Shown here one piece after another: positions 16,711 through 58,657 of a DNA stretch of 64,000 nucleotides. Positions within the stretch are counted from its first letter, which is position 1; every line of letters begins with the position of its first letter. The stretch lies in the IMG/VR virus record IMGVR_UViG_3300028581_000018, positions 1-64,000 of that record; one strand, written 5' to 3'. The translations under genes were made by a program, and so were the position numbers. The DNA comes from a virus. The notes under the pieces were generated by a model. The model was not told the origin of the DNA, did not search any database, and was given only the letters and a program-made list of their open reading frames with translations.

Positions 16711-16741
16711 AAGCGGGGTAGTTGTTTGCTACCCCGCTTTT
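16711..16741 (+). terminator. Rho-independent terminator
   Basis: aagcggggtag/ctaccccgctt 11-bp stem followed by Ts. Confidence 0.85.
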
Positions 16742-16757
16742 AATTATCATCAATATT

Positions 16758-17993
16758 ATGAAACCAAATGCCATAAACGCGTCGCTAAGAATAAGTTATG
16801 AAAATGGTATAACAGAATTTGAATGCCTCGGCCCCGCAATAACTCAAAATAGCGAAATAGATTTATATTCTTTATTTCAAGACACTATTCAATTGTCTAA
16901 ATTTGATACTAGTAACTGCCCTAAAATTTTCATAGGCAAAAGCTGTAAAATTCCTAGAGCTAAATTGGGCTCCCTTAAAGACAACAAAGTTCTAGAAGTT
17001 AAAAGAAACATTAAAGACTGTGAATATTTAGTAATCAATGTAAAAAGTATTGTTTCTAATAATATAGAGCATGACTATTACTCATTTATAGTTGATATCA
17101 GTGAGCTACATAACATTATTAAGTTTGAGCTTAGTCATAGAACCTATAACCAAGACGTTGCAGATAACATTAAAAACGAGTTTGCTAAAATACTAGATTG
17201 TTGCAAAACATATGGTATTACTAAAATACGTTTAGCTAGATTAACCCATGACACCAGAAGAATACTTATATATAAAGATTCAAAAAACAAATACTATGAT
17301 AAACTGCAGCCAGAAGGTTATACTAAACAAAGGTTCATTAACACTTTTAATTTTCTAAATCATCCAGATAGAAAATTTGACAGTGATGGTGATGTTGAAG
17401 ACTATGATAATTCTTTTAATGTAATTCTATTTAGCAATCCCGAAATAGAAGCTCTTTTAAGCAATAATATGAAAATAATAGATTCTTCTGAAATAACTAA
17501 ACTAATAAATACTACACTTATTGATGAAGAACTATTTGAGAATATATCTAACATGTTAGAGAGTAATGATTATAGTAACGTTGATACTGCATTAGAACTA
17601 ATGGCATCTTGTGATTTTGAAGAGTCTATGTTCTACATAGTAATGCTGTTAGATTTGCACTATTATAATATAAGCAATTCAAGTTATTTCAAGCATGTTA
17701 ATTTTCAATCTTTGATACAATATGTAAAAAGTATTTTATTAATTGGTAACGTAGATACTCCAAATAGATTTAAACGAATTATGGGTGGTCAAAGTACAAT
17801 GGAAAGCCACGCAAATGAACTTCTTCAAAAAGGCTATATGTTTCCTGAACATAAATCATTTATCAAGAAACATATGTTCCCTCATCATGATGTAAATTGT
17901 GAATTTATCAGAGCTGAATTTCATATTTCAGAAAGCGTGCTAGATAAAATGGATAAAAACTTAGAAGCTAAACAAAATAATACCGAAGAATAA
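16758..17993 (+). CDS. hypothetical protein
   Basis: ORF track 16722-17993; ATG 16758 lies beyond the terminator. Confidence 0.75.
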   Translation: MKPNAINASLRISYENGITEFECLGPAITQNSEIDLYSLFQDTIQLSKFDTSNCPKIFIGKSCKIPRAKLGSLKDNKVLEVKRNIKDCEYLVINVKSIVSNNIEHDYYSFIVDISELHNIIKFELSHRTYNQDVADNIKNEFAKILDCCKTYGITKIRLARLTHDTRRILIYKDSKNKYYDKLQPEGYTKQRFINTFNFLNHPDRKFDSDGDVEDYDNSFNVILFSNPEIEALLSNNMKIIDSSEITKLINTTLIDEELFENISNMLESNDYSNVDTALELMASCDFEESMFYIVMLLDLHYYNISNSSYFKHVNFQSLIQYVKSILLIGNVDTPNRFKRIMGGQSTMESHANELLQKGYMFPEHKSFIKKHMFPHHDVNCEFIRAEFHISESVLDKMDKNLEAKQNNTEE

Positions 17994-19030
17994 TGGAATT
18001 TGACTCACTAAAACTAGAAGGAGATTTTTACTCAAAAGATTTTTACTTTAGCTATTCATCACTGAATAAGCTACTATATTCGCCAGCGGCGTTCTATAAA
18101 CATTACGTGTTACAAGAAAGAGAAGATAAAGTAGAGTCTTATCTTATTACTGGTAAAGTTATTCATACTTTGATTCTTGATAAAGGACGATTTGATGAGT
18201 TCTTTGTTGTGGTACCCACAAATTTACCCGGCGACAGCATTCGTAAAATTGTAGACCACATCTTTAAGAACCACTTTTTGATACAAGACAACTATGACAA
18301 AAACTTAGAAGACTTTGATACTGAGATACTTGCATACATGCAAGAAATTAATTTGTACCAAAGTTTGGTTGATGACAAAAAAGATGTAACTTTGACTGGA
18401 GATGCAAAGCGTCTCGAGAAGATTCTCAACGACCAATCCAAACAATACTTTTCATACCTCAAATCAAGCTTAGGTAAAGATTTAATCGACGAGGAGACAT
18501 TGAAAATTTGTGAAGAGGCAGTGGTGGCTGTAAAAGAAAACAAGAAAGCTTGGAGTCTTTTAAACACCGGAGCACAGTTTGAGTTACAAGAAGTTTACAA
18601 TGAGATGTTTATATCTAGGGATTATAGGGCCCAGTATCCTTTTGGCTTAAAAGGTATACTGGACAACATAACCATAGACCATGCTAATAAGACAATCACA
18701 ATCTGTGATCTTAAGACTAGCAGTAAAACACTCTCAGAGTTTCCGCAAACAGTAGAGTTCTACAATTATTGGTTACAAGCAGCAATATACACCCGCATCG
18801 TATTTGATGAGTTTATTCTCAGCAAACCAGATGGTGAAAAATGGAAGATTAACTTTCATTTTGTAGTGGTTGATAAGTTCAACAATTGCTATGTGTTTGA
18901 TGTCCAAGAAGAAACTCTTATTAGTTGGCAGAACCGGTTAACCGACGTACTTAAACAAGCAAGTTATCATTACTCTAATCGCTCATTTAATCTCCCCTAT
19001 GAGTTCTTAGTTGGTAATGTAAAACTTTAA
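17993..19030 (+). CDS. PD-(D/E)XK exonuclease (DUF3799/RecE-like)
   Basis: FSYSSL, GKVIH, KGILD...ICDLKT, YWLQAAIY. Confidence 0.85.
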   Translation: MEFDSLKLEGDFYSKDFYFSYSSLNKLLYSPAAFYKHYVLQEREDKVESYLITGKVIHTLILDKGRFDEFFVVVPTNLPGDSIRKIVDHIFKNHFLIQDNYDKNLEDFDTEILAYMQEINLYQSLVDDKKDVTLTGDAKRLEKILNDQSKQYFSYLKSSLGKDLIDEETLKICEEAVVAVKENKKAWSLLNTGAQFELQEVYNEMFISRDYRAQYPFGLKGILDNITIDHANKTITICDLKTSSKTLSEFPQTVEFYNYWLQAAIYTRIVFDEFILSKPDGEKWKINFHFVVVDKFNNCYVFDVQEETLISWQNRLTDVLKQASYHYSNRSFNLPYEFLVGNVKL

Positions 19031-32263: not shown

Positions 32264-35200
32264 TTAAACTCTAAAACACGTCCCGTCTAGATCTAAACCT
32301 ATTAGATCTTCGCTAACAAGAGTTTCACCAGCAATACCTTCTTGGTTTTCAATAATCAAATCCATTACTCCAAATTTACTTGACCCGGGCACCGGTAAGT
32401 TAAATCTCTTATAAAGTTCACCATATAAGTACTCTGCAATAACTTTAGATCCCGCAATTTGTGGAGTGTTCTGTTTTAATATGTCATTTATCAAAAGAGA
32501 CATATCCATTACAACAGCATTTCTAGGATTGCTCAAAATCTCTTCAATTTGAGATAACTGCTCATTTATACGTTTCTTAGCATCTTCAATGCTGGGAGTG
32601 GTACCTTGAACTACAGGACTAGGTTGAGTAGTGCGTTGTTGAGAGGTTAATTTTGCAGGTGCCGTGGGCATACCTGGTGTTAGGTCTGCAGCTCTTCTGA
32701 ATGTAAGAGTAATAGTATAATTTTCTATAACAGTACCATTAGGTAAAGTAATAGGTGGAAACTTCTGATCTCTTTTTACGCCTTTAGGTGTGTCATGAGC
32801 TAGTTCAAATCTACCTTTACCATCCATACCAAAAGTATAAATAGTTCCATTTTGAGTAGGTATTTCTTTTCTAGAATCTGATCTAAAAGATGGTGAACCA
32901 GGATTATTTTTATCCTCATAAATTCCAATTCCACTATTATTACCTATAGTATATACTACAACTGGATAATTTCTAGCACTCAAACTTTCTGTGGTATCTC
33001 TATGTGTTGCTATGTTCTGACCAGGTAAATAAATATTACCAATTACAGCATCATAGTTAGACATATCTATACCTAGAGTATTCTGAATCTCCTCAATAAT
33101 AGGTTGTAGATTAGATACAGGAGCTAGCGGATTACCATTTTGATCAACTGTATCATATACATAGTTATCTTTTGCCTTAGCATCTGTAGTAGCTAATCCA
33201 GCATTTGCATAGCTCTTATTATTAAGAGGTGCTTTAGCTGTACTTTTTCTAGTCCAACGTAGTCCATACATGAACATGTCATTAGCTGTACCAGAAGCAT
33301 TTTCTTTATAAGCTTGTGCTCTAATCTGTGGTTGGATAATATCTATAAAATCTTGAGTCTTATCAACAGATGGTTTAGTTTCTGCTACTACTACACCATA
33401 AGGTTCTGATACTACTTGCTGATTAGTACTTACAGGAGCTTGGGTGGGTTGAGTAGTAGTTCTTAATTGTTCAACTACTTCAGCTAATGCTGTAGGATGC
33501 ATACCTTGACCTCTAGCTGCAGACTTACCTGCATACAACAATGTAGCACCATCTAGTTTACCTTGATTAATTTGATTTAAAATCCATTCTCTTTGTTTTT
33601 CATTTACATCTTGAAGCAAAGTATCCCTTAATTCCATTTCCTTGCCTGTAGTAGCCACAGAATACTCCATATAATCACTTATAGGTTCATCAACTCCTAA
33701 TAACCAATCTTTATAAGCTCTTACTGCTTCACTAATACCGGCAACTTTTATAGTACCTCCATAACCAGCCTCACTAAAAGGATTACCAAAATGCTCATTA
33801 GGTTTAGCAGCTTCAGTGCGCATAGTATTAACCAACTTTGGATTATTTTTATCATAAACTTCCGCAGTTTTTAAATCACCTTTCCATTCTCTTGATGTAT
33901 CTATTGTAGGTTTAACACTAGTAGATGGTTGAGTAGTTTCTTTTACTTTAATTCTTGAAGTAGCACCTGTATGATAAACAGCAAACTTAGCACCTATTTC
34001 TTGCAAATAATCAATAAACTGAGAATCTACATTAGGCATGTCTCCTACTACAAACTCCATATTAAAATCATCATGATAAAACTTTATCATATCTTTAGTT
34101 TCTTGAAGTAAAGGTTTACCTTTTAAGGAACCATTTCTTGCAAGCATGACTGCTTTACCAGGGTCTGCCAGGTTTTTAGTACTTCTAGCAACTGTCTGTT
34201 CTTTTGTACCTTTTTGTTCTATTATACTTCCTGTTTTTAAAGAAGTTAAAGAAGAACTTGGATTAGTATTAGATACTTCAACAACAAAACTATCAGCAAC
34301 TGCTCTCATTGCTTTATCTTTACCATCACCTTCAGGAGTACCTTTACCAGTATTTTCAAAATCTCCTTTATATCCTTGGAATCCTCCAATACTAGTAGAT
34401 GGTTGAGTAGTGCGTTGTACACTAGAAATACCAGCATTAGCAAGCATCTCTTTAATCTTAGGTAAATTTTCTCTAGTATAATCTTTTCTTACTGTACCTT
34501 GTCTACCAAGATTTACATTTTCTGAAGGTATTACAAGTTTAATATTAGGACTAGCTTGTACTGTTTTAATAAGCAATGGTAAAATTTCTTCTATAGAACC
34601 TTCACCATGACCTAAACCCGCTAAAGGAAGTAAATAAGTTTTAGTTGGGTTTTCTTTAGAAACTTTAATCAAACTTCTTAAACTTTCTTTAAGTAACTCC
34701 ATGTTATTATTCATAGACATGTCATCACTCCATTTTTTCTTAACAGGTAACTGTACTACATCATCAGTAGCTTTAAAATTACCTTCACCTTGTTTAACCA
34801 AACCTTTAGCTTTAGCTGCTTGAGCAAGACCAGCACCATGTACACCACCTAAATTAGTAGTAATAACTGGGATACCAGGTAATGCAAAAATATCACCTTC
34901 TAATACTTTATCATTACTTACAGGAGCTTTGGTGGATTGAGTAGGTTGACCACCTTCTATAAAACCATCACCTACTTCTTTAAAACCAATACTAATTGGA
35001 AGATACTTGGCACGGGTAGTAGTATTTCTTAAATATGGAGACCTTGCTGCTTCAGTTTTATCTAGAGTGGTTGGATATACTACATATACCCCACCCGTTT
35101 GATCTTGCTTAATAACAAGGTCGTAGTAATCATATGGCTTAGAATAACCATATTGTTCGTTGGTAAAGAGCAGATTTCTAAAGTTTTTAGATGGTACATA

Positions 35201-38200
35201 ATTTGATCGTATTGTCTCCCCGCCAGGTAATCTATAACTAAATGCACCAGGAACAAGCTCGCTTCGGTCAATTTTTACAGGTGCCAAGCTGTATTGTCTA
35301 ACAGGAACTGTTGTTTTTCTAGTTTGACCAGAAATAAAACCTTCAGCAAAGTTCAATAATGATTGTTCTGAAAAATTAAAACCTGAAATAGCATCTTGAA
35401 TTGTAGCGTTTACTTCAGACAAATCAACTAGGTTTACTAAATTAGAAACATTTTTACTAAAACCATTTTGTAAAAATGCAATCTGGGGCAGCATAGTAAA
35501 TACATAGTTTATAAGCTTAATATTACTATCTGACAAGTTTGGCATTCTGTTTTTTACCGCCGTAAAATCTTTTAGTTGTTTTAACTGAGAATGGTATGAC
35601 GTTGCAGTAATCTCATCAATAGATTTTCCTATAAAGTCTAATATTACATATCCTGGATATTTTTTAGAATTAGTAAGAAAATAAGATAATACAGGAAACT
35701 GCTCTGTTAGTTCTTCTGAAAAATCTTTCTTTAAAATGTTTCTATAGAACACATTTGCAAATGATGATCCAGGATCTTGAAATAACTTATAGAGATTAAA
35801 GCTGTTAATATACGCCCTGTTTTCTTTTTGAACATCTGTACTATTTGGTTGAGTAAGTTCAACAATCGCGCGCTCTATCAAGAACCTAGTATACTCATGT
35901 ATTGTTGGGAACTCCTTGTTGCGAAAATCATTAGATAAGCTTTCATACTTTCTTTGTATCTCACTAGCACTTATATAGATTTTATCTTTAGTGAGGTAAA
36001 CACCTTTTTTTAAATAATCTACATACTGAACAGGTACTGTTTCTGATACACCAAATCCTTTGTAAGAATCAGATACACCAAGTCTAAAACCACGAACAGC
36101 ATTTTGGTATAATGCTAGAACAAGTTCATCTCTAAATGCAGCATCTAACAACTCCGTGCCGGTAGCTTTATTTGATGTTTGGCTATTTGATAATCTTCTA
36201 TAACCTTCTTGTAAAGAGTTAAACTCAGTGTTATCCGTTTCAATTTTACCACTAAGTTTATTTATAAAGTTATCAATGCGCGCATCAAACCTAAAAGGTA
36301 ATACTGATTTTGTTAAGGCTATAGAAAAGTCTCCAATAAAGAAGCTACCAATCATAGACTTTTCAGAGTTTTGAATAGCGTCAACTAAAGATCTATCAAT
36401 ACGACCATCGTAAAGCAGCTCATTTAATGATGCTTCACGTTCTCTGGTTGATAGATAAGAGTTTTCTCTTGTGGTGTCTACATTTGTTGCCCGGCTAAAC
36501 TTTGTAAATGCTTCAGATATATTTGATATCTCAATAAAATGTCTTAAAACTTTTTCTTGATACTCTTTATCTACTTTAGTAGGTATAAGTTGATCTTTAA
36601 GATCATTTAGTTGAAACTCTTCTTCATTATTTAATGAGTTTAATATGATTACATTCTTATTTTTATTGTTTAAAAGTATTTTATAAGCCTCACTTGCACC
36701 TCTTTCTTTCTTTAATGCTATGAACCTTCTAACAAGTGGTTGTGATACAAAGTAAACAGCATGTTCAACTGGTACTCCTGCCATTAACATATACATTAAT
36801 ACAGGAGTAATCTCTTTGTTACCTTGTATATAGAAGATCCATGGGTTTGCGCCAACGTCAACCCAACCATTAATCATCTGACTAAAAATATCAGATATTC
36901 TTACAAGCGGTGCTTTTTTATCTGTTCTATAACTATAAGTGTTATGTAAAGATATGTTACCCTCTTTTGTTACATTTTTTGGCAACAGCATCCTTATTGG
37001 TACAGTATAATCCTCCTTATTATTTCCACTACCTGTGGATATAACATATTCTTTTGGACTAACACCTTTCAAACTATTCAATAGAATATTATAGGTGGTC
37101 ATAATTGCACCAATACCTAAAGCATCCATGGCTGTCATGTATGCTTCATACTTAGACAAGTTGTAATCAGACTCAAATAATCTAGTAGGGCTTATTACAC
37201 CAGTAGATTCTCCAGAAAAATTTAATAATGGATCATAAGTCTGTGTGAGCCTTTTTAATTTATCAGCAAGATCATCAAAGATATCTGTGCTGTTAGGTGT
37301 TATTAATGACTCATAGTTTTGAGGACTTAATATAATTTCAAGAGATGTTTCTAGTAAATCTGTTTGTAGGGCGCCGACATAATTGTTCTCAACATCTAAT
37401 ACATAAATAATCTCTTTTAGATCTTCAATACTTTCTTCTATTTCTTTATTTAACTGATTTTTATCTTGAAAAGCATTTTTTAGTTCTTTATCTAAGTTAC
37501 CTGATTCATCTTTGAATCTATCAAATTCTTTTATTTGATCAAATAACCTTTTACTAAACTTTTCTAAGATACTCCTAGATGTGTCTTTAGTTAAAATCTT
37601 AGAGGATATGCGAAGAGCTTTAATTATATCCCCGTCAGTATAATCTGGTTTAGAAAGTACTTTTTGTAATGGACTTGGTAAAAATTGAAGCTGTCCGTTT
37701 TCACGATTATCATTAATTATTTTATTAATTTCTTCAATAATAAGCTTTCTACGAACTTTAGCATACTCGAGATTGCGTATGATATTAGAGATTGTCTCTT
37801 TGTTAACTTTCTTATCTGCTTTAAGATCTTTAATTAACATTTTAACTCTTTCTATAACATCTTTCTTATCAAGATTATTTTCTTTTTCAAGTCTTGATAG
37901 TTCATCTAAAAGATCTTGTCTTGTTTTATACTTCTTAGCAGATATTATCTTACCATTTTTATTTATTCTAGGAAATAGTGATGGTAGTTTATCAAAGTCA
38001 AAGTCACCACCAGATTTACCAACAATCTCTGAAGGCAACACAATAATGTTACCCGTGCCAATTGGCAAAAACTCATATACTTCTAATGCATCAATTGAAC
38101 CTTGACCCTGCACAGGTATCCTTACACCAAGAATACTAATTGCCTGGCGGTTGTCATCTTGATGTAACCATTTATCATTTTTGATTAACTGGTTTAGCTT

Positions 38201-41200
38201 AACCCGGCTAGCCTCAATATCAAGTACTCTCTTTTTTGTACCATCTTCTTCTTCAACGATATCATATACAGCAATTATATTACCATTAAGATCTTTACGC
38301 TGAAAAAGATTTATGAAGTCTCCATGTAAGGTAATAGCTACTTTAGCAGCTTGAATCTTTTTAGGATTGTATTTATAAAAGGGTAAAAACTCATTAGTAC
38401 CTAACCATTTCTTTCTTTCACTCTCATTAGCTTTTCTCCAAAATGATCCAGGTACTTGTACCAGTCCTTCACCATATGACTTTTGCTTTATAAGGCGCCG
38501 GCTGATTGTAGAAAACATGATTGCTTCTATAGTCTGGGCATTAGGTAAAGCTGATAAATCATTAGTTAGATTACCATTAGCATCTACAGAAATCTGTTTT
38601 ACTATATGCTCTGGTAAATTTTTCTTTCTCAGTTGAGTTTGTAAAAAAGCAGCAAGTCTTTCTACTGGGCCAGAGTATGTATTACCTTCTTTTACCCAAC
38701 CTATTTCATCTAAGAAATCTTTTTCAAGATTTTTAGTAACCTCATCTACAAGTCTTAAATAGTCTTTTTCAAGTTCTTTTTTGTCCTCTATAATTATACC
38801 ATTTAAGTACAAGTTCTCAACGATAAGCTTCCTCATCTGCGTAGCAAATGTTTGACCCGCTTTCCAAACATTAGTATTGCTGGTAACCTCTTTTAAGTAC
38901 GCTAAGTTTACAGGGTTAACGGTAAACTCTGTAGACATATTTATCTTATTACGATCACCATTCTCGTAAAGATCAGTAGGATTACCAAGATTAGAAATCT
39001 TTGAACCACTAGGATAAGTAATATAATCTATATTATTGATAATCATAAGATTATGAATATCATTTAATAAAGAATCTTCATGTACATTTGGTAGTAATGG
39101 TGATATACTAAACTTGTGTAATGCAGTAATAGGGGCATCTGTCTGAAGATTACCGTACATTTGTAACTTGTAAGTTGGAAAAAATACTTTAGCGTCATTA
39201 GCATCAAGCTTTTCACCATTTACAATCTTTTGGTATAGTGCTTCTTGTTCTGGTAACCAGTTGTTTTGTGCAATTTTAAGGTGTCGGTATGTATCAATAG
39301 TCATATAAGCATGACCATCACCAATTTTCATTTCTTTACCATAAGCTTTCTCAAGAGATTCAACAACTTCTTGTCTAACAGCTTTTTGACTTCTCTTTTC
39401 TCTCGCGGCTTTAAGTTTAACAACAGCTTCAATCATTTCATTAAGACTAACAGATCTTAAGCCTGTATCTTCCTGAATAATTGCTGTATTTAAAATACTA
39501 GTTGTCTCTTTTACAACCCCATCTGGTCTAAGTTCAGACATTACCTTTTCACTGTAAACTTTGGGGTATGCTTTATTAATAGCTTGTAGTACCCATTCAT
39601 CAGAAATAAAACCTGGGCCACCAGAACCAGCACCAGCATTATACTTTGTACCAGCTTCTTTTTTGTGATTGTATTGAGCCATATCACCATAAAAGAAATT
39701 GTTCATTTCAAAACGGTGAATAAAGTAGTTTACTGTATATGCTCTAACTAACGTTTTGTTTAACTCAGCATCCTTTACATTTAAATTAAACTTTCTTAGT
39801 TCTGTTTCATCTACAGGAACAAGTGGAGCTGATTGATCGTATCTATTCTGATTTTGCTTATTAACTTCTGTAAAGTAATATTTTAGATCTTCTTTAATAG
39901 CATCAATGTTTTTCCTTACAGATTCATCAGATGTTAAACCCTTCTCAATGTCTGCGTATAGAGCACCTTTTGTCTTAGGACTTAATATATCATCAAATGC
40001 TGTAAACTTTTCACCGGCGCCATCTTTATTCAACGCTTGGTTTTGTTTGTATGTCTCATTTGTCTTAAACAAAACAATTCTTTCATACTCCGCTTTGATA
40101 TATCTTTGAAGTAATCTAAGAGCATCATCTGGTAAAAGAGTATTCTCAAATAGTTTAGGTTGTAAGTATAATTCAGCAGAACCATTTTTATCTGTTATCA
40201 TAGGAACATAAACACTAGATTTACTTTCGTGAACTAGTGTTGGCATATATCCGTGTAGGATAAAAGAATAAAAGTCAGTTATGAACTTTTGATTTATTGT
40301 TAAATCTGTAGCTGAACTAGCATTTTCTATGTTATCATATTCATCAAGCTGTTGATAACCAACATGAAACATTAACTCTAACTTATTAAGATTGTTTCTG
40401 GATTCATCTTCGTAAAAAAGTTTTTCTCGTATGATACTGTACTTGAAAAATGGATTTAGTTCTTCAGAAAACTCTACGTTAAAGCCAGATGCATCTAATA
40501 AGTTAATGCTCTCATTTAGATACATGATCTTTCGAGTCATTGAGTTATGCAGAGAAATACTACTTACCAGATCACCATTAGCATTTAGAATAATGCTATC
40601 GTTAAAAAGAGGATTATACTTAATCTCTATCTGGGCAATTTTTCTAAGAATAGTTCTTTGATTACTTATTTTAGAATCAGTACTTCTCTCAATAAATGCT
40701 TGTAGAGGATTACTTTTTAGTTTTTTGTTATTAGGATTAATGCGAATATCATCGAGCATTTTATTAGCAGCAGATAATAACTCATTAAGAGTAATTCCAC
40801 TTTTTTGTGCTTGAATTACTTCTTTAGTAGTTTTTGTAAGCTGTACACCGAGCCTTTCAAAAAACTCAAAAGCTTCCTCAAAAGTGTTTACTCTGTTTGG
40901 TAAGTTGTTTGTGTTTAATACTGCTTCGTTATTAACGCGGGGTGCCACGTTAACAAAAATATTCTGCCATCTTCTATAAACATTTCCTACACTATTAGTA
41001 GCTTTACCAGAAGTGAAAGTTTGTTTAGTATCTGTTGTATTTTCATCAACCAGAACGTTACTTTTTGTATTAATTAATGCTTCTACTGATGCTTTATCAA
41101 AGGCTGAATGAAAATTTAATAGCACCTCTAACAAAATCCTTACTCTATTTCCTGTAATATCTTGAGCTAAAGCTCTATTGGTTGTATGCTCTTTAGGTAA

Positions 41201-44200
41201 CAGTTCATATATTACTTTTAATACAGGAAACGCATCACTAGACTTTTTTATAGCATCAAGCATCTCAGTATAAGTCTTAACGCCAACAACTGTTTTTTGT
41301 AATGCATTAAGCGTTGGGCCAAATTCTTGGTTTATAGGAAACCCTAGTTTGTTCTTTATATAAACAAACTTTTCCTCACCTATACTAAAATCATAAGATT
41401 TGCTGTTAATCTCTTTTTGTGTAGCTTTTTTAAAACTAGGAATTATTCTAAGAATTGTTGTAAGCTCTTTTGGTAAATAGTCTTTCATAGGTCGACTATT
41501 TGCTCTCTTATCTCCTCCTTGTTGTAATAACTCAGAATTGTTTGATGTATCTGCGTCAACGTCAATATCAATATCTTCTTCAGCAACTACTAAATTAGTA
41601 ATAGCTGCAGATGAAGTTTGAGCATATGCTGCTAAAATACCATTTGTCTTTTTGTTATTCGCAAATGATTCAATGTCTCCAAAGTTCTCAATAACTATCT
41701 CTAGCAGTCTCTTTTGGTCTAGTAAGTTGTTTGGTTTTTCTTCAAGACTATCAAGCTCCTCATTAATATCAGCAAGTTTATTCTTAAAGGTATTTAGAAT
41801 ACCTTCAAAAATTGTTGTACGTCCTTTTGATGAATACAAGAAAGCTAAGTTGTTAGAGCGAGTTCCGTCTAGTTCTGTGTTAATTAAAGCTTTAGCTACA
41901 AGCCCATCAATAGATTGTCTAATAAGATCAAACTCTTCATCTTCAATGTTCAAAGGTGTTTTATCATCTTTTACACTCTTAGCACGATTCAAGACATCAA
42001 ACATTGAGTTATTAATGTTTGGTTGAAGATTTAGAAGCTTACCAAAGTAAAGTTTCTCAAATGCTTCAGCCACTGCCGGTACACTCATTGCATCTACATA
42101 GACAGCATTTCTATTAGTGCCCCCAAACAAAGCCTTTAAAAGATTCCAGATCTTTCTAAAGATTGTATTTTTTGCAGGAGAACCCTTCTCAGGATTTTGG
42201 AATCGAGCATAATCTCTAAACTGCTCGGCTAAATATTCTTCTATTTGAAAGAAAGAAGCATCGCTAAAACTTACTACCTCACCATTAACAGTTGTAAATA
42301 CACCGGGTTTTTTACGAACCTCTTTATATAGTTTTACTTTTTCTTCAGTGGTTAAGTATAGCTGAGTAAAACCGTGCCATGCTTCGTGGTAAATATCTAC
42401 AGAACTTGATCCTTTATAAAGGGTGATGCCTGATCTTGAAAATGTGGCCCAAGCATTACTATTAACAATACTAAGTAATCTGTTTAAAGGTATTACTTTT
42501 GAAAGGGGACTATTCGCCCACCATTTTTCAGCATCACGAATTTGTTCTTCTGTGACTGCGTTTTCTAGATTTGTTGCCCTAAACAAATCGTCAAAACTTA
42601 AATTAAAAAGATCAGGGTTACCAGGATTTAAATTCTCATTGTCTTGCTCTTCTACAGTTTTTTCTTCTGCAGGTGAAGTTTCTTGTTCAACCTCTGGAGT
42701 TTTTTGTAGAGTATCTAAGTCTGGTAATGTATATCTGAAAAGAGGATTTAATGCAACAATTTGACCTTCTGCATTTGGTTTACTAGCACGTACTTTAATA
42801 TTGTTGTATAACCAGCTATAATAGTTAGAATTGTCCTTAACTTTCAGTTCTCCATTTTCAACTTTAATATTTGTATATATACCATTTGTAAAGTTTGTAA
42901 GATTAATATTTACAAGAATGTTTTGTTTAAACACCTCCTCAAGTGCAGACTTAAGATTTTCATCTCCTATCTTGTATTGAGTTTCCTTACCATCGGCATC
43001 TTTTATAGTAACTGTTTCTGCAGATTTATTATATATAACTTGAGGACGATCTGTAGCCTTAACAGTAGTAAGAAGATTATTTCCAATCTTTACAAAAAAC
43101 GTTTCAAGATACTTATATCTAGTATCAGAGCTTATATTAATATTGTCAACTAGTATATTTTGTTCAGAAAGAAGCATTATTATAGCTTCTGTTAAACCAG
43201 GAACATCTTTAAAATAAGGCTTAACTGCCTCAACATGTTCATCTGATAAGTTTCTAACAAGATTAGTGATCTTTAAAAACTTATCAAAAATACCCTTTCG
43301 ACGAATCCAATCTTCTGAATCTATTTGTTCATCACTTGCATCTATACGTATATCTCTTAGAAGACCTGGTGTATTATCATAGTTAGAACTACCTATTGAT
43401 GTAATAGGCATTGTTACTTGAGTATTGTTTTCTGTTACATACTTTTTAGTTTCTTCTAGTCGCTTAATAAGTTCTAATTGAGCAGCAATTGCTTCTCGGC
43501 TTTTTAGTGTAGCAATTTTATCTTTATTTCTAGTAAAGTTATATATCACACCCCCAGTGCCATCTTCTGTAATGTTTCCTTCATTATCAAACAAATAAGG
43601 TACACCCTTAGCATCTGTTACAATTAAAATTGTAAGGTTTTCTCTCCTATTGTAAAGATTTGATCTTTGAAATCTATTCATTGACGCAAAGTCTCCACTA
43701 CCCAAATATTCTTTATCTAGCTCTATATCTAAATTTTGGTGAGCCATCATTGTATAGTACAATGGCTTACCATTATACATCAAAGGTTGACCAGGAACCG
43801 TTTCTTCATTATTTTTCTGTTGTTTAGAAACTTTCTCTTTGAATTTATAAATTCTATTTTTTACAGGATCTTCTTCATCACGAAGAGTTTGAATTGGTAC
43901 AGTTACTTTTTCTTGTTCAATTTGAAAAGCTTGTTCTCGGGTATCTGTGTTTGGACTACTAGAATAAGTAAAAACCGGTTCTGAAGTATTAAGTTCTATT
44001 TTACGTTTGTTATCTTCTGTTGCTTCGTATTGTCCTAGTACAATTCTTTGTGAATCTATAATCTCTAGAATAGTTTGTAATGAACCAGTTATTGTAGTAA
44101 TTAACTTTTTAACCTCTTCAATATCTTTGAATGTTTCAATTGAAATACTCAGTTTATCTGAGTAATTAATTCTTGCAAGATATCTTTTAACTTCAGGTAC

Positions 44201-44413
44201 AAAATATGATAAACCTGATATTAACTCAGGTACCATCATGGCATATGCTAATGCTGTATTCTCATCATTATTTTTACGAACTAATGAATATATTTTTTGA
44301 GCAAACGGTACCACAGAAAAATTTTTCTGATCTGCAGTAATCATTTTCTGAATGTCTTTTAATAGAAGAGCACTTACTCGTTGTATTTGCTCTTTTGGTA
44401 TAGCACAGTTCAT
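32264..44413 (-). CDS. virion-associated DNA-dependent RNA polymerase (crAss-like gp66 type) with C-terminal accessory domains
   Basis: 4049 aa; GDGHAY, SGSK, RIPVQGQGS, catalytic GGDFDFD (37991-38005); N-terminal zincin YHEAWH. Confidence 0.88.
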   Translation of the reverse strand: MNCAIPKEQIQRVSALLLKDIQKMITADQKNFSVVPFAQKIYSLVRKNNDENTALAYAMMVPELISGLSYFVPEVKRYLARINYSDKLSISIETFKDIEEVKKLITTITGSLQTILEIIDSQRIVLGQYEATEDNKRKIELNTSEPVFTYSSSPNTDTREQAFQIEQEKVTVPIQTLRDEEDPVKNRIYKFKEKVSKQQKNNEETVPGQPLMYNGKPLYYTMMAHQNLDIELDKEYLGSGDFASMNRFQRSNLYNRRENLTILIVTDAKGVPYLFDNEGNITEDGTGGVIYNFTRNKDKIATLKSREAIAAQLELIKRLEETKKYVTENNTQVTMPITSIGSSNYDNTPGLLRDIRIDASDEQIDSEDWIRRKGIFDKFLKITNLVRNLSDEHVEAVKPYFKDVPGLTEAIIMLLSEQNILVDNINISSDTRYKYLETFFVKIGNNLLTTVKATDRPQVIYNKSAETVTIKDADGKETQYKIGDENLKSALEEVFKQNILVNINLTNFTNGIYTNIKVENGELKVKDNSNYYSWLYNNIKVRASKPNAEGQIVALNPLFRYTLPDLDTLQKTPEVEQETSPAEEKTVEEQDNENLNPGNPDLFNLSFDDLFRATNLENAVTEEQIRDAEKWWANSPLSKVIPLNRLLSIVNSNAWATFSRSGITLYKGSSSVDIYHEAWHGFTQLYLTTEEKVKLYKEVRKKPGVFTTVNGEVVSFSDASFFQIEEYLAEQFRDYARFQNPEKGSPAKNTIFRKIWNLLKALFGGTNRNAVYVDAMSVPAVAEAFEKLYFGKLLNLQPNINNSMFDVLNRAKSVKDDKTPLNIEDEEFDLIRQSIDGLVAKALINTELDGTRSNNLAFLYSSKGRTTIFEGILNTFKNKLADINEELDSLEEKPNNLLDQKRLLEIVIENFGDIESFANNKKTNGILAAYAQTSSAAITNLVVAEEDIDIDVDADTSNNSELLQQGGDKRANSRPMKDYLPKELTTILRIIPSFKKATQKEINSKSYDFSIGEEKFVYIKNKLGFPINQEFGPTLNALQKTVVGVKTYTEMLDAIKKSSDAFPVLKVIYELLPKEHTTNRALAQDITGNRVRILLEVLLNFHSAFDKASVEALINTKSNVLVDENTTDTKQTFTSGKATNSVGNVYRRWQNIFVNVAPRVNNEAVLNTNNLPNRVNTFEEAFEFFERLGVQLTKTTKEVIQAQKSGITLNELLSAANKMLDDIRINPNNKKLKSNPLQAFIERSTDSKISNQRTILRKIAQIEIKYNPLFNDSIILNANGDLVSSISLHNSMTRKIMYLNESINLLDASGFNVEFSEELNPFFKYSIIREKLFYEDESRNNLNKLELMFHVGYQQLDEYDNIENASSATDLTINQKFITDFYSFILHGYMPTLVHESKSSVYVPMITDKNGSAELYLQPKLFENTLLPDDALRLLQRYIKAEYERIVLFKTNETYKQNQALNKDGAGEKFTAFDDILSPKTKGALYADIEKGLTSDESVRKNIDAIKEDLKYYFTEVNKQNQNRYDQSAPLVPVDETELRKFNLNVKDAELNKTLVRAYTVNYFIHRFEMNNFFYGDMAQYNHKKEAGTKYNAGAGSGGPGFISDEWVLQAINKAYPKVYSEKVMSELRPDGVVKETTSILNTAIIQEDTGLRSVSLNEMIEAVVKLKAAREKRSQKAVRQEVVESLEKAYGKEMKIGDGHAYMTIDTYRHLKIAQNNWLPEQEALYQKIVNGEKLDANDAKVFFPTYKLQMYGNLQTDAPITALHKFSISPLLPNVHEDSLLNDIHNLMIINNIDYITYPSGSKISNLGNPTDLYENGDRNKINMSTEFTVNPVNLAYLKEVTSNTNVWKAGQTFATQMRKLIVENLYLNGIIIEDKKELEKDYLRLVDEVTKNLEKDFLDEIGWVKEGNTYSGPVERLAAFLQTQLRKKNLPEHIVKQISVDANGNLTNDLSALPNAQTIEAIMFSTISRRLIKQKSYGEGLVQVPGSFWRKANESERKKWLGTNEFLPFYKYNPKKIQAAKVAITLHGDFINLFQRKDLNGNIIAVYDIVEEEDGTKKRVLDIEASRVKLNQLIKNDKWLHQDDNRQAISILGVRIPVQGQGSIDALEVYEFLPIGTGNIIVLPSEIVGKSGGDFDFDKLPSLFPRINKNGKIISAKKYKTRQDLLDELSRLEKENNLDKKDVIERVKMLIKDLKADKKVNKETISNIIRNLEYAKVRRKLIIEEINKIINDNRENGQLQFLPSPLQKVLSKPDYTDGDIIKALRISSKILTKDTSRSILEKFSKRLFDQIKEFDRFKDESGNLDKELKNAFQDKNQLNKEIEESIEDLKEIIYVLDVENNYVGALQTDLLETSLEIILSPQNYESLITPNSTDIFDDLADKLKRLTQTYDPLLNFSGESTGVISPTRLFESDYNLSKYEAYMTAMDALGIGAIMTTYNILLNSLKGVSPKEYVISTGSGNNKEDYTVPIRMLLPKNVTKEGNISLHNTYSYRTDKKAPLVRISDIFSQMINGWVDVGANPWIFYIQGNKEITPVLMYMLMAGVPVEHAVYFVSQPLVRRFIALKKERGASEAYKILLNNKNKNVIILNSLNNEEEFQLNDLKDQLIPTKVDKEYQEKVLRHFIEISNISEAFTKFSRATNVDTTRENSYLSTREREASLNELLYDGRIDRSLVDAIQNSEKSMIGSFFIGDFSIALTKSVLPFRFDARIDNFINKLSGKIETDNTEFNSLQEGYRRLSNSQTSNKATGTELLDAAFRDELVLALYQNAVRGFRLGVSDSYKGFGVSETVPVQYVDYLKKGVYLTKDKIYISASEIQRKYESLSNDFRNKEFPTIHEYTRFLIERAIVELTQPNSTDVQKENRAYINSFNLYKLFQDPGSSFANVFYRNILKKDFSEELTEQFPVLSYFLTNSKKYPGYVILDFIGKSIDEITATSYHSQLKQLKDFTAVKNRMPNLSDSNIKLINYVFTMLPQIAFLQNGFSKNVSNLVNLVDLSEVNATIQDAISGFNFSEQSLLNFAEGFISGQTRKTTVPVRQYSLAPVKIDRSELVPGAFSYRLPGGETIRSNYVPSKNFRNLLFTNEQYGYSKPYDYYDLVIKQDQTGGVYVVYPTTLDKTEAARSPYLRNTTTRAKYLPISIGFKEVGDGFIEGGQPTQSTKAPVSNDKVLEGDIFALPGIPVITTNLGGVHGAGLAQAAKAKGLVKQGEGNFKATDDVVQLPVKKKWSDDMSMNNNMELLKESLRSLIKVSKENPTKTYLLPLAGLGHGEGSIEEILPLLIKTVQASPNIKLVIPSENVNLGRQGTVRKDYTRENLPKIKEMLANAGISSVQRTTQPSTSIGGFQGYKGDFENTGKGTPEGDGKDKAMRAVADSFVVEVSNTNPSSSLTSLKTGSIIEQKGTKEQTVARSTKNLADPGKAVMLARNGSLKGKPLLQETKDMIKFYHDDFNMEFVVGDMPNVDSQFIDYLQEIGAKFAVYHTGATSRIKVKETTQPSTSVKPTIDTSREWKGDLKTAEVYDKNNPKLVNTMRTEAAKPNEHFGNPFSEAGYGGTIKVAGISEAVRAYKDWLLGVDEPISDYMEYSVATTGKEMELRDTLLQDVNEKQREWILNQINQGKLDGATLLYAGKSAARGQGMHPTALAEVVEQLRTTTQPTQAPVSTNQQVVSEPYGVVVAETKPSVDKTQDFIDIIQPQIRAQAYKENASGTANDMFMYGLRWTRKSTAKAPLNNKSYANAGLATTDAKAKDNYVYDTVDQNGNPLAPVSNLQPIIEEIQNTLGIDMSNYDAVIGNIYLPGQNIATHRDTTESLSARNYPVVVYTIGNNSGIGIYEDKNNPGSPSFRSDSRKEIPTQNGTIYTFGMDGKGRFELAHDTPKGVKRDQKFPPITLPNGTVIENYTITLTFRRAADLTPGMPTAPAKLTSQQRTTQPSPVVQGTTPSIEDAKKRINEQLSQIEEILSNPRNAVVMDMSLLINDILKQNTPQIAGSKVIAEYLYGELYKRFNLPVPGSSKFGVMDLIIENQEGIAGETLVSEDLIGLDLDGTCFRV
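32622..34944 (-). repeat. five dispersed TTQP(S/T)-linker DNA repeats (core ttgagtag) between RNAP accessory domains
   Basis: 33917-33937 = 34391-34411 (21 bp identical); 32622-32639 = 34401-34418 (18 bp identical); 33428-33456 vs 34916-34944 (27/29). Confidence 0.85.
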
Positions 44414-55186: not shown

Positions 55187-58100
55187 TTAACTAAATAAAC
55201 CTTTGTATTGTGTATAATAATTAGGATCTACTCCTGTATTTTGAGTCTTTGACTTGTACTCACGATCATATTGTTCTTTTGCAAATTGTGCAGCTTTATT
55301 ATCATCAACACCCATTTGTGACTTAATTTTTTCTTTTCTTTTTGCAATCTCATCCCAGTCATATTCTGCAGAAGCAGTTTGTGAACCGTCAAATGGTTTA
55401 GATACACCTGTTGGTAATACAAAACCACTACTTGGATCAACTTGATATTGTGGATTTAAAACATTTAACGCTTGCGTTTTCCCCCGGTTGGTAAGTGCAT
55501 TAGTGTAAGCTTGTGTATACTGCTGCCGTGCTTGATTTTTAGCATTCTCAAATTGTTGATTAGCTACTGTAGTTTTATCAAATATATTTGTAGCCCTATC
55601 AGCAGCCGCTTTTCTACCAGCATCTATTAAACCAACATTTATTTGGTTGGCTTGGTTATAGATATTTTGGTTAGCGTTATTAACAGATGATAATGTATCA
55701 GCTATACTTTTAGCAGCGTTGCCTTGTAAATCAGACATTCTAGCAGAAAAAGCTTGTGGCCCACTATATGAAGTTAAACCTTGTACAGCTTGTCCAGCAG
55801 ATTCATTAATTGCAGCAATTTGACGATCCGGGTCTATATATGATGCAAACATTTGTGGTGGTTCATATGGTGCTACAAAAGGTAACTGTTTGTTTATGTT
55901 ATACAAGTTACCAAAGGTAGCAAGATTAAGAACTTCATCCTGCGCCCACCATGGAGTAAATCCTGGTACACCAGGAATATTTTGATTTGTTTGCGTAGGT
56001 TGATCTGTTTCAGTTTCAGTAGTTGTACTTGGTTCTGTAAACTCTTCTTCAGCATATTTACCAGGATCATATCCAGCTAATTGACCACGAGTAGTATTAG
56101 CAAGTACATTATCAGCTCTAGAAATAGAGCCTGCCTTATCTCCTGTAATTTTATCATTAAACTTACCAGCTTGTTGTATGCTGTAAGGCTTAAGTTTTTC
56201 TTTCAGTGCTGGAGGTGCGTCTTTATCATCACGATACTTTAATAGATCTCTATAAGCAATGTAAGATAACTGTTGACCAATACCTGAAGTTCCAGATGGT
56301 GGTGTAATACCAATCTGTTTAAGTTTTGTATTTATATCTGCACCTGTTTCACCTGCTTTACTAACATCATAACCATGTGCCTGTAAAGCAAGATTAGCTT
56401 TTTCAAATTCTAAAAACTGTTGAACTATTTCATCAGGAGAAAGATTCCGCAGCTCATTTTTTTGAGCTTCTGTAATTTTTTCACCAAAATAGTCATTGTT
56501 GTCCAAACCCTTTTTAAACTGTTCAACAAATGCATCTTTAACATCAGTGTCACTAAATGTTTCTTCTATAGCAGCATATTGTTGAGCAAATCCTTTATTA
56601 TTATTAAAGATCTTCGTAAAATCATTAGACTGTTCATCAAGTGTAAATTGTCTTGGTTGAGATGTAACCTTTCTTAATTTACCATCTGCTGTTTCATAAA
56701 TATCACCAACATTTAAATTATTCTTATCAAAACCAGCATCTTCTTCTTTAGGATAGTTTGATTTTTTACCAGCATTATCAGATGCTGTAACTGGCGTAGT
56801 TTCAGTTTTAGTAGTTGTAGGAGAAGGAGTAGCTTCAGAGGATGTTTGATTAGTTGCAGATTGAGTAGGTGTAGTGGATGGTTGAGTAGTTGCAGGTTGC
56901 GTTTGAGTTACTGGAGTTGCAGTTGCAGGAGTATACTCAGATAAAGTTTTATCAAATGCAGCACCTTGATTTTTTTTGTTGTATGCGTCTTTTGCAAATG
57001 TAGGTTCGTAGTTATACTGTTGTGGGTTCTCAGTATAAAATTCGCGTGGTGTTTCAGTTGTCTTAGGAGCATTGTTATTAAAGTCAAAATTATTCCACAT
57101 CAAAGATCTAGGAACAAAATTATCTTTAAAGTTCTTAACATATACATCAGGTTCAGCATCTAAATTTTTTCCTGTTTGATATGAACCATTAATTTTAGCT
57201 TCATCAATAGAAGCAAAACTATTAGGGTTAGTTAAAAAAGAATTGTAATCAAAGTTTGGTACATCTTTAACTGTACCACCCATAGTAGAAGGATCTACAC
57301 TTCCACTAGCAACTAAAACTAAATCTTTAATTGAGCGACCAGTATTAAATTTATAATCAACAAGCCTTACTTGCATTTCAGGTTTTAAAGAATTATAATC
57401 TACACCTAACTTGGTAAGCTCATCAACTGTTTTTTGTATATGTTCTTTCATTTTAGTCTTATTACTACCAGTCCAGTTATCATCTGAATACTTACTTTGA
57501 TAAGACGTATTACCTTGTGTGGCTGCTTTACCACCTTTCATGCCAGCATCTCTTTCATGCTTAAGTATATACTTTGTCCAGTTATCATTCCAGCTATTAA
57601 ATGCTGTATCAATTGGATCTCCACTATTAGCTTGTGCTTGGCTATTAGCTGCATTTTGTAATGCTACTGCGTCATTTCCACGATATGTGCCAGATTGAGC
57701 ATCTGACTTTAAGATATTTATTAGACCTTCTTGATTAGAATCAAGATTAACTGCATTACCTGTTTGAAAAATAGGTAATGAAATACGTACACGAGATCTT
57801 GATTGTCCACCTTCACGCATATATGGCATGCCACCATATTCCATTACAGGGTTATAGTAAGATCCTCCATACATCATCATCATCTCTGGTGATACTCCTT
57901 GCATCATTTGTGGATCAACAGGTTGTTGATCTGGAGCCATCATTTGTTGAGCTTCTGGTTCTTCTTGAATTGGCCCTTGATTATATGACTCTGTTGGTAC
58001 ATCTTGTATGTTTTCTTCACCAGGTTGAGTTTGTGGTAAAAGCATTTCTGGTTTAATACCTTTGGACTCTAGGTAAGGCATCGCAATTACAGGTATCCCC

Positions 58101-58657
58101 TGGGGGAAACCTTTAATAGATTCTTGTGCTAAAGCTAAAGAACCTAATTTAAGATTAATGTTTTTAAGCATCATCTCTGCGGTGCGTACTTGTAAGGTGT
58201 CGCTGTTCTTATCTTGCAACATCTTACGATACTCATTACCTTTTTTGTTTATGTGGTTTGATATTTCCGCGGGGGTATATGCTTTCTTACCCTTCTTAGT
58301 AGGCATACCAAAGTATGCTAACAAATCAGGATCTTTTATAAGCATTGCCCTAGTATCAGAAAAGATAAAAGTGTTTTCAGGTAGATTAAGTGGTACGCCA
58401 CCGCTTGAGTGGCGGGGCCCAGATATCTTGTAGAACTCAGCCATGCCATCTTTGTTGATGTCACCCATGGCTGTTTCACCACCTTCAGCTTCTAAGTTAG
58501 CTTCATTTCTAGGAACACGAGTAAGTGCTTTACGAGATGTTAAGTCAGGAGTTTTAAACTCATTAACATTGGCACCACCCCACATGCTCATTTGACGAGC
58601 ATTTGCGGTAACCTCATTTCCGTATTGTGCTTTAGGTAATGTAACGCGAACTTTCAT
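55187..58657 (-). CDS. virion cargo protein with possible lysozyme-like module
   Basis: EAEGGE...GPRHSSGGVP...FIFSD N-terminal domain; ILKHE...VDYKFNTG segment. Confidence 0.65.
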   Translation of the reverse strand: MKVRVTLPKAQYGNEVTANARQMSMWGGANVNEFKTPDLTSRKALTRVPRNEANLEAEGGETAMGDINKDGMAEFYKISGPRHSSGGVPLNLPENTFIFSDTRAMLIKDPDLLAYFGMPTKKGKKAYTPAEISNHINKKGNEYRKMLQDKNSDTLQVRTAEMMLKNINLKLGSLALAQESIKGFPQGIPVIAMPYLESKGIKPEMLLPQTQPGEENIQDVPTESYNQGPIQEEPEAQQMMAPDQQPVDPQMMQGVSPEMMMMYGGSYYNPVMEYGGMPYMREGGQSRSRVRISLPIFQTGNAVNLDSNQEGLINILKSDAQSGTYRGNDAVALQNAANSQAQANSGDPIDTAFNSWNDNWTKYILKHERDAGMKGGKAATQGNTSYQSKYSDDNWTGSNKTKMKEHIQKTVDELTKLGVDYNSLKPEMQVRLVDYKFNTGRSIKDLVLVASGSVDPSTMGGTVKDVPNFDYNSFLTNPNSFASIDEAKINGSYQTGKNLDAEPDVYVKNFKDNFVPRSLMWNNFDFNNNAPKTTETPREFYTENPQQYNYEPTFAKDAYNKKNQGAAFDKTLSEYTPATATPVTQTQPATTQPSTTPTQSATNQTSSEATPSPTTTKTETTPVTASDNAGKKSNYPKEEDAGFDKNNLNVGDIYETADGKLRKVTSQPRQFTLDEQSNDFTKIFNNNKGFAQQYAAIEETFSDTDVKDAFVEQFKKGLDNNDYFGEKITEAQKNELRNLSPDEIVQQFLEFEKANLALQAHGYDVSKAGETGADINTKLKQIGITPPSGTSGIGQQLSYIAYRDLLKYRDDKDAPPALKEKLKPYSIQQAGKFNDKITGDKAGSISRADNVLANTTRGQLAGYDPGKYAEEEFTEPSTTTETETDQPTQTNQNIPGVPGFTPWWAQDEVLNLATFGNLYNINKQLPFVAPYEPPQMFASYIDPDRQIAAINESAGQAVQGLTSYSGPQAFSARMSDLQGNAAKSIADTLSSVNNANQNIYNQANQINVGLIDAGRKAAADRATNIFDKTTVANQQFENAKNQARQQYTQAYTNALTNRGKTQALNVLNPQYQVDPSSGFVLPTGVSKPFDGSQTASAEYDWDEIAKRKEKIKSQMGVDDNKAAQFAKEQYDREYKSKTQNTGVDPNYYTQYKGLFS

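Follow-up and report, generated by a model that had tools for sequence, protein, structure and literature searches.

The window analyzed here, positions 1 to 64,000 of the virus record IMGVR_UViG_3300028581_000018, is a stretch of 64,000 nucleotides from a 109-kb IMG/VR contig. It contains a single open reading frame (ORF; 32264..44413) coding for a giant protein of 4049 residues, which combines a part with a zincin-type motif, a crAss-like virion RNA polymerase core, an array of cassette-like modules and a C-terminal tail (the gene and all features of its product described below are on the minus strand). Within the last ~900 residues of this protein, five TTQP-type linkers bound four modules, M1 to M4. 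The first linker, L1 (GGQPTQSTKAPVS; 34916..34951, residues 3155-3166), forms the junction between the core and the array, and close relatives diverge exactly here; it is followed by M1 (34415..34915; 167 residues), L2 (RTTQPSTS; 34391..34414, residues 3334-3341), M2 (33941..34390; 150 residues), L3 (ETTQPSTS, then V; 33917..33940, residues 3492-3499), M3 (33461..33916; 152 residues), L4 (TTTQPTQAPVS; 33428..33460, residues 3652-3662) and M4 (32636..33427; 264 residues). The last linker, L5 (RTTQPSPVVQGTTPS; 32594..32635, residues 3927-3940), is the junction between the array and the tail, where close relatives re-converge. An earlier reading of the sequence (hereinafter the original prediction) had described a repeat-delimited array of four modules at the C-terminus of the polymerase. 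The repeats do lie where it placed them, but as five linkers rather than four pairs, and the array does follow the polymerase core, but it is not the C-terminal end, as a tail of 109 residues comes after L5.

The nature of the carrier is indicated by its core (residues 1467-2700), the tblastn matches of which are exclusively from crAss-like phages (83/83); it matches g066 of Cellulophaga phage phi14:2, a 'catalytic RNA polymerase subunit', with E=3e-8. The product of this gene, gp66, is an experimentally characterized virion RNA polymerase that enters the particle and is ejected along with the DNA, and the signature of the crAss-like virion RNA polymerases is DFDxD (preprint 10.1101/2020.03.07.982082). 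The window protein carries this catalytic motif as DFDFD (37991..38005, residues 2137-2141). Going by the homology to gp66 together with the motif, the carrier is a predicted crAss-like virion RNA polymerase. A PDB sequence search with the whole 4049-residue protein returned nothing, and the end of the core found no match in viral-contig or metagenome searches with a single protein as query.

In the N-terminal third of the protein there is a zincin-type metallopeptidase motif of the HExxH form (HEAWH; 42374..42388, residues 676-680), which is retained in 100 of the 107 homologs that span the site, at ~40% identity; none of the profile libraries searched recognized a domain in this region. A zincin-like protease is carried in phi14:2 by gp65, which is fused to the RNA polymerase in some phages, and the fused gp65-polymerase polyproteins are probably cleaved (preprint 10.1101/2020.03.07.982082). 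The C-terminal tail (M5; 32267..32593), which ends in ...DGTCFRV, drew no family match in profile-library scans.

Turnover of the array and its boundaries

All sequences compared with the window are metagenome assemblies. A search with residues 3100-4049 recovered 339 giant proteins with widely different Pfam content. Six lineages, namely the window and P0012, P0037, P0064, P0069-74 and P0086, which were compared with it as proteins, have cores that are 85-96% identical and tails that are 85-100% identical regardless of the array, and all six carry different inserts between the two. Among such close relatives, identity ends at ...GFIEGG(Q/R/K)... and picks up again at ...SPVVQG(N/T)TPSIE.... 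Six lineages with cores this similar bear six arrays rather than a fixed domain set, in line with the varying module content expected in the original prediction.

The modules themselves recur at 70-95% protein identity on polymerases with cores that are 25-30% identical. The top identities in proteins with ~25-30% identical or undetectable cores are 95% for M1, 90% for M2, 88% for M3 and 93% for M4; M1, for example, is present in 26 giant proteins at 71-95% identity on cores that are 25-30% identical. When the uncut query was aligned by BLAST with 120 related giant proteins, the alignment starts and ends piled up at the five linkers, and the homologs of the modules elsewhere are flanked by TQP/QAPVS-type linker stretches. 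There are at least 19 families among 71 linker-bounded segments, and the payloads seen in relatives include AlkB-like, NADAR, ART-PolyVal, cpYpsA SLOG and DUF7831 domains, a zeta-toxin-like kinase, a superfamily 1 (SF1) helicase and DnaJ. Arrays placed N-terminally, before the polymerase core, are also seen in related phages. A tblastn comparison of the array with GenBank phages gave no match.

At the DNA level, two exchanges have both ends in linkers, with an identity of 90-94% in between. Two of the contigs, G009 and G010, share one module of 165 residues with 93.6% DNA identity, which extends from a TTQPSTS linker to the next linker between unrelated flanks; they have no further DNA in common at ≥85% identity. 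Likewise, M3 of the window is 88% identical in protein sequence to its counterpart in a marine contig (L197), and the DNA similarity, mostly 87-100% per 30-nucleotide window with a dip at one indel, extends from the linker preceding M3 to the one following it, with unrelated flanks on either side. Together with the alignment ends, these junctions bear out the original claim that module boundaries coincide with the repeats.

As every sequence in this comparison is a metagenome assembly, the mosaicism might in principle arise from different phages having been joined artificially at a short shared repeat. We consider this highly improbable: all the junctions are in frame, the same architectures are found in independent samples and collections, and near-identical pairs from separate samples agree over 17-34 kb. 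Moreover, the usual assemblers work with final k-mers longer than the 24 nucleotides of the repeat.

A replacement on a larger scale is seen between G009 and another contig, G016, which share more than 13 kb at ~98% identity; in place of the ~1490 residues of modules in G009, G016 has one cpYpsA module. Downstream, the breakpoint of this replacement falls within the ten final codons (...TEFEVTKCRED) retained by both contigs. The breakpoint data therefore point to a general plan of core, linker, variable array, linker and conserved tail. As a separate observation, the polymerase gene of G016 (L049/L069) has a stop ~330 nucleotides upstream of the linker, at a position occupied by Lys in G009 and G007 (...VLKTI* versus ...VLKKIK...). 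It divides the gene into ORFs of 2515 and 325 residues on a backbone that is otherwise 98% identical, and may reflect a genuine split of the gene, a site of read-through or an error in sequencing.

Constancy of the linker DNA and proposed routes of exchange

Within the window, L2 and L3 use the same codon at 7/7 positions with the same residue (P ~0.001), as do L1 and L4 (7/7; P ~0.002); the codon sharing of the other linker pairs, such as L2 with L5 and L3 with L5, is not significant taken alone in this within-window chance test. The codon ACA is used at 0/13 linker Thr positions versus 43% of Thr codons genome-wide (P ~7e-4). The three repeats noted in the original prediction were all recovered: ACTACTCAACCATCTACTAGT occurs identically over 21 bp at 33917-33937 and 34391-34411; L5 (~32618-32635) and L2 have 18 nucleotides in common, including the uncommon Arg codon CGC; and the copies at 33422-33456 and 34910-34944 are 89% identical over 35 nucleotides.

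The only further copy in the 109-kb genome is a near-canonical linker, ACTACTCAACCATCCAC (TTQPST), at 56874-56890 on the minus strand. It lies in a Thr/Gln/Pro-rich stretch of a neighboring giant protein of 1156 residues (gene at 55187..58657), which may also be built of linker-joined parts. No orphan cassette with TTQP-type linker DNA was found in the genome by a pattern search, which itself missed L4 of the window.

Across phages, the canonical 21-mer ACTACTCAACCATCTACTAGT, held by L2, can be extended by GTT to a 24-mer, ACTACTCAACCATCTACTAGTGTT, held by L3. The exact 21-mer is found in 21 IMG/VR contigs, where 24/24 sites read TTQPSTS in frame. The exact 24-mer is present, likewise always in frame, in 19 contigs from metagenomes, among them marine records of ENA and TARA. 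With few exceptions, the ORFs that host them range from several hundred to more than 4,000 codons, and the copies lie between unrelated modules. In 185,579 prokaryote genomes, the 24-mer has 0 occurrences. A degenerate search that permitted synonymous spellings served as an ascertainment-free test over the scanned part of the collection: 14 of 15 true linkers have the canonical spelling and one differs from it by a single base, although the codon usage of these genes predicts this spelling in only ~2%; the remaining 67 matches are chance occurrences in unrelated, mostly GC-rich contigs. Furthermore, QPSTSV linkers after another residue, which the search had not selected, use the same six codons. 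The DNA identity of the linkers is thus far above the expectation from codon bias, as originally claimed. In an alignment of 28 sites, conservation is limited to the 24 nucleotides and falls sharply on either side. The module DNA next to the linkers is just 68-84% identical to that of the window, as against 100% for the linker DNA, so the linkers either are of more recent origin than the modules they bound or are under tighter constraint. Some module boundaries are formed by a second class of linker, TQAPVS, or by degenerate variants. Taken together, the variability of the array, the sharing of modules by distant cores and the linker-bounded DNA homology establish the modular turnover, its boundaries and the constancy of the linker DNA, which is nearly unchanged throughout a large group of aquatic crAss-like phages.

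What keeps the linkers constant can be approached from the protein or from the DNA. If they acted mainly at the protein level, as flexible spacers or as cleavage sites of the zincin, the modules would turn over by recombination in flanking sequence, and the DNA identity would be a by-product of the recent spread of linkers along with modules. The conserved HExxH motif in the same polypeptide agrees with such a role, as does the expectation in the literature that fused polyproteins of this kind are cleaved (PMC5512222; preprint 10.1101/2020.03.07.982082); the wider family also has degenerate T/Q/P/S-rich linkers, and the G009/G016 replacement uses flanking homology. However, selection on the protein cannot freeze synonymous sites to the degree seen in the degenerate search, and the G009/G010 and M3/L197 exchanges have both of their ends within linkers; we find this account quite unlikely.

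At the DNA level, the linker could be the recognition site at which a dedicated phage enzyme, for example a nuclease (of the homing type or another) or a site-specific recombinase, cuts or pairs the DNA and so drives cassette conversion; the freezing of synonymous sites would then stem from recognition rather than from homology alone. A block of 24 nucleotides that is sharply bounded, includes the palindrome ACTAGT and displays no synonymous drift across cores that are 25-30% identical would suit such an enzyme, and the phage does carry homing-endonuclease-like genes. Yet no candidate is tied to the array; a search for tyrosine integrases (PF00589) found no match in the 109-kb record, though it was positive in 14/14 control genomes, which upholds the earlier remark that no dedicated integrase is visible. 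Modules are also bounded by the TQAPVS class and by degenerate variants, and a homing endonuclease usually evolves to fit a target that is conserved, rather than being what conserves it. We accordingly hold a dedicated enzyme to be unlikely.

Instead, we consider it likely that the giant polymerase is a polyvalent injected protein with a payload that recombination reshuffles at the conserved, in-frame linkers. On this proposal, the Thr/Gln/Pro/Ser linkers would serve as short patches of in-frame homology: homologous recombination, either among phages that co-infect a cell or between the linkers of a single genome, would add, delete or replace a single module with the frame intact, whereas whole arrays would be replaced via the longer homology of core and tail. 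The linker copies would be kept alike by repeated exchange and gene conversion. A recombination gene, that of a PD-(D/E)XK exonuclease, is indeed present in the vicinity. The protein would be packaged and ejected with the DNA, as is phi14:2 gp66, thereby bringing the modules into the cell before the expression of any phage gene; as a further, speculative step, the HExxH protease may free the modules at or near the linkers.

Several points count against this proposal or narrow it. First, the packaging and ejection of the window protein are extrapolated from phi14:2 and crAss001. Second, the upstream breakpoint of the G009/G016 replacement lies ~50 nucleotides before the shared linker, in diverged homologous sequence; hence, flanking homology is used too, and the linkers are not the sole crossover sites, so that the original view of the repeats as in-frame recombination sites finds support with this qualification. 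Third, about half of 121 giant homologs have no TQP-type linker by the pattern used; the linker is therefore a trait of one large sub-group and is not required for fusion itself. Fourth, recombination by itself leaves the absence of synonymous drift unexplained, and a sequence-specific factor may be involved. Finally, the family assignments of M1 and M2 are weak, and the structural model of M3 is too poor for structure searches (predicted local distance difference test [pLDDT] 53.6). A more far-reaching form of the idea would make the linker a selected, sequence-specific exchange signal, in effect an in-frame attachment site recognized by a phage or host factor, through which counter-defense domains on an injected protein are traded across a whole group of crAss-like phages and at which the zincin also frees them after ejection; this we regard as doubtful.

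Predicted activities of the modules

The four labels in the original prediction fared unevenly. That of M4 as an AlkB-like 2-oxoglutarate and Fe(II)-dependent (2OG-Fe[II]) dioxygenase is the only well-supported one on sequence grounds. M4 matches PF13532 at E=5e-7 (30.5 bits; cut-off 31.2) and TIGR00568 alkb at E=0.003, and its profile matches a solved 2OG-Fe oxygenase (5xeg) at E=0.001. PF13532 is also annotated in relatives that are 70-93% identical to it. In five sequences, H142 and D144 of the HxD motif, R244 and R245 are invariant, and a second His is visible in all rows. The predicted role of M4 would be the repair of alkylated nucleic acid, possibly on the polymerase-bound template.

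The assignment of M3 as a distant DUF4326 relative is supported transitively. M3 of the window has no hit to PF14216 (DUF4326); its family profile gathers 582 representative clusters, mostly within giant proteins, and PF14216 is the sole or second family matched by 3/10 of the distant members (E 2e-4 to 2e-3; 19-22 bits versus a cut-off of 25). A PDB sequence search with M3 was empty and the Atlas search uninformative. Matches of M3 to aldehyde dehydrogenases, which are short, below cut-off and located on a helical stretch, were dismissed as chance. Separately, a fragment of 245 residues (P0219) combines the Pfam N4_RNAP_helical domain with an M3-family (DUF4326-like) domain; the M3 module family is therefore also carried by N4-type virion polymerases.

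M1 is weakly Macro/DarG-like and A1S_2505-like by sequence comparison. Against NCBIfam it matches A1S_2505_Nterm at E=2e-6, below the cut-off, and the DarG antitoxin at E=4e-4 (19.8 bits versus a cut-off of 250); it also matches PHROG 335, annotated as 'phosphatase', at E=6e-6. No match to M1 was found in viral contigs with a single protein as query. An equation of M1 with Pfam DUF7831 was rejected, as M1 scores just E=0.09 and the true DUF7831 of P0083 lies elsewhere than its copy of M1.

For M2, the AlphaFold2 model is confident (pLDDT 92.4) and predicts a Rossmann-like fold. M2 belongs to an uncharacterized family: it has no Pfam family, nothing in the PDB exceeds Z 5.9, and both Foldseek against the PDB and a PDB sequence search were empty. 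As for the SLOG-like label, there are only leads from comparison. The Atlas language-model neighbors with a named family all belong to the SLOG clan at scores of just 0.79-0.81, and the M2 model compares with LOG at Z 4.2; an hhalign comparison of M2 with the cpYpsA modules of relatives gave a probability of 0.1%. The conserved motifs of the family are GDGKDKAMR, VMLARNG and FVVGDMPxVDSQFIDYL, and it is also found as small stand-alone genes on ~100-kb contigs. A terminal Cys recurs in this group of proteins: the giant proteins of the window start with MNC... and end in ...DGTCFRV (32264-32285 and 44405-44413), stand-alone homologs of M2 and M3 often start with MxC... and end with a Cys in the last few residues (P0123, P0129-P0131, P0134, P0136, P0137 and P0153-P0159), and the polymerases of G009 and G016 likewise end near a Cys (...TKCRED).

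In DNA viruses, including phages, domains of the Macro, NADAR, SLOG and DUF4326 families are found together and as fusions, often in packaged proteins, and have been proposed to dismantle ADP-ribose-derived defense signals and modifications (Iyer et al., 2022, PMC9503650). As predicted from their sequences, the trio M1-M3 fits this picture; M1, M3 and perhaps M2 would act on modifications and signals of the ADP-ribose type, by reversing or processing them.

Related systems and genomic context

Multi-enzyme injected phage proteins have already been published as 'polyvalent proteins' (Iyer et al., 2017, PMC5512222). These are likewise giant, with unrelated enzymatic domains, a predicted entry with the DNA and variable architectures; zincin-like peptidases are their commonest domain, and N4-type virion RNA polymerases are among the carriers. 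With several disparate predicted activities (the core, HExxH and M1-M4) in one phage polypeptide, the window protein is a polyvalent protein by its domain content, and one of its relatives carries the Pfam domain ART-PolyVal, named after the class. It differs in that its carrier is a two-barrel crAss-type polymerase, as against the N4 type of that work. There, recombinational variability of cassettes was considered possible for a single kinase locus only, and AlkB, SLOG and DUF4326 are not named; the word 'linker' is absent from it, so no conserved DNA linker was reported (PMC5512222). The other close precedent, phi14:2 gp66 (Drobysheva et al.; preprint 10.1101/2020.03.07.982082), has a homologous core with DFDxD, and some phages fuse the polymerase with the zincin-protease protein. 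It is 2180 residues long, with ~1600 residues of unknown function, and the preprint mentions neither an array of accessory enzymes nor cassettes that can be swapped; indeed, the crAss literature examined, including this preprint, describes no accessory cassette arrays on the polymerase.

Exchange of segments at conserved motifs has parallels elsewhere. In the T-even adhesin gp38 and tail-fiber genes (Tetart et al., 1998, as cited in PMC3157838), short conserved motifs split the variable segments of a gene, and crossovers inside these motifs give chimeras. The variable units described there are short loops of one receptor-binding domain and the motifs are structural glycine-rich elements, whereas the window protein combines complete, independent predicted enzymes, and what is conserved between them is an unstructured linker whose synonymous sites are frozen. 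Polymorphic toxins such as Rhs and CdiA (Zhang et al., 2012, PMC3482391) likewise couple a constant part for delivery, via a conserved motif at the junction, to variable domains that recombination with cassettes replaces. They have one terminal toxin, an immunity gene and orphan cassettes nearby, unlike the serial domains before a conserved tail, with no immunity genes, in the window. Integron gene cassettes are also interchangeable, repeat-bounded units in arrays, but here there is no integrase and there are no attC-like structured sites, and the units are in-frame protein domains, not genes. The MARTX toxins of Vibrio have an array of effector domains in one polypeptide, which varies between strains via recombination and is released by a built-in protease. 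These are bacterial toxins against eukaryotic cells and use a cysteine protease, and we know of no nucleotide-frozen linker in them.

The Crassvirales are among the most abundant known phages, and the non-catalytic content of their giant polymerases is largely unexplained. Some of this extra content consists, at the present locus, of predicted enzymes that can be exchanged as a set, probably aimed at host defense. The conserved 24-mer offers a simple tag for retrieving such domains from viromes, including unannotated families like M2. Frozen synonymous sites beside diverging DNA also provide a clean natural case in which to ask whether a sequence can persist because it promotes recombination, a question related to the older 'linker' idea of modular phage evolution. 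For laboratory systems of phages and bacteria, the arrangement further suggests a natural route to swapping the domains of an injected phage protein.

Elsewhere in the window, the other giant proteins display no Pfam domains save one PD-(D/E)XK nuclease. The plus-strand half contains a replication module with a DnaB-like helicase, a primase, a PD-(D/E)XK exonuclease and a DNA polymerase. The exonuclease (17993-19030, plus strand) matches an exonuclease VIII-like PHROG and is adjoined by a gene at 16722-17993 on the same strand, the 423-residue product of which has no family match and could be its annealing partner.

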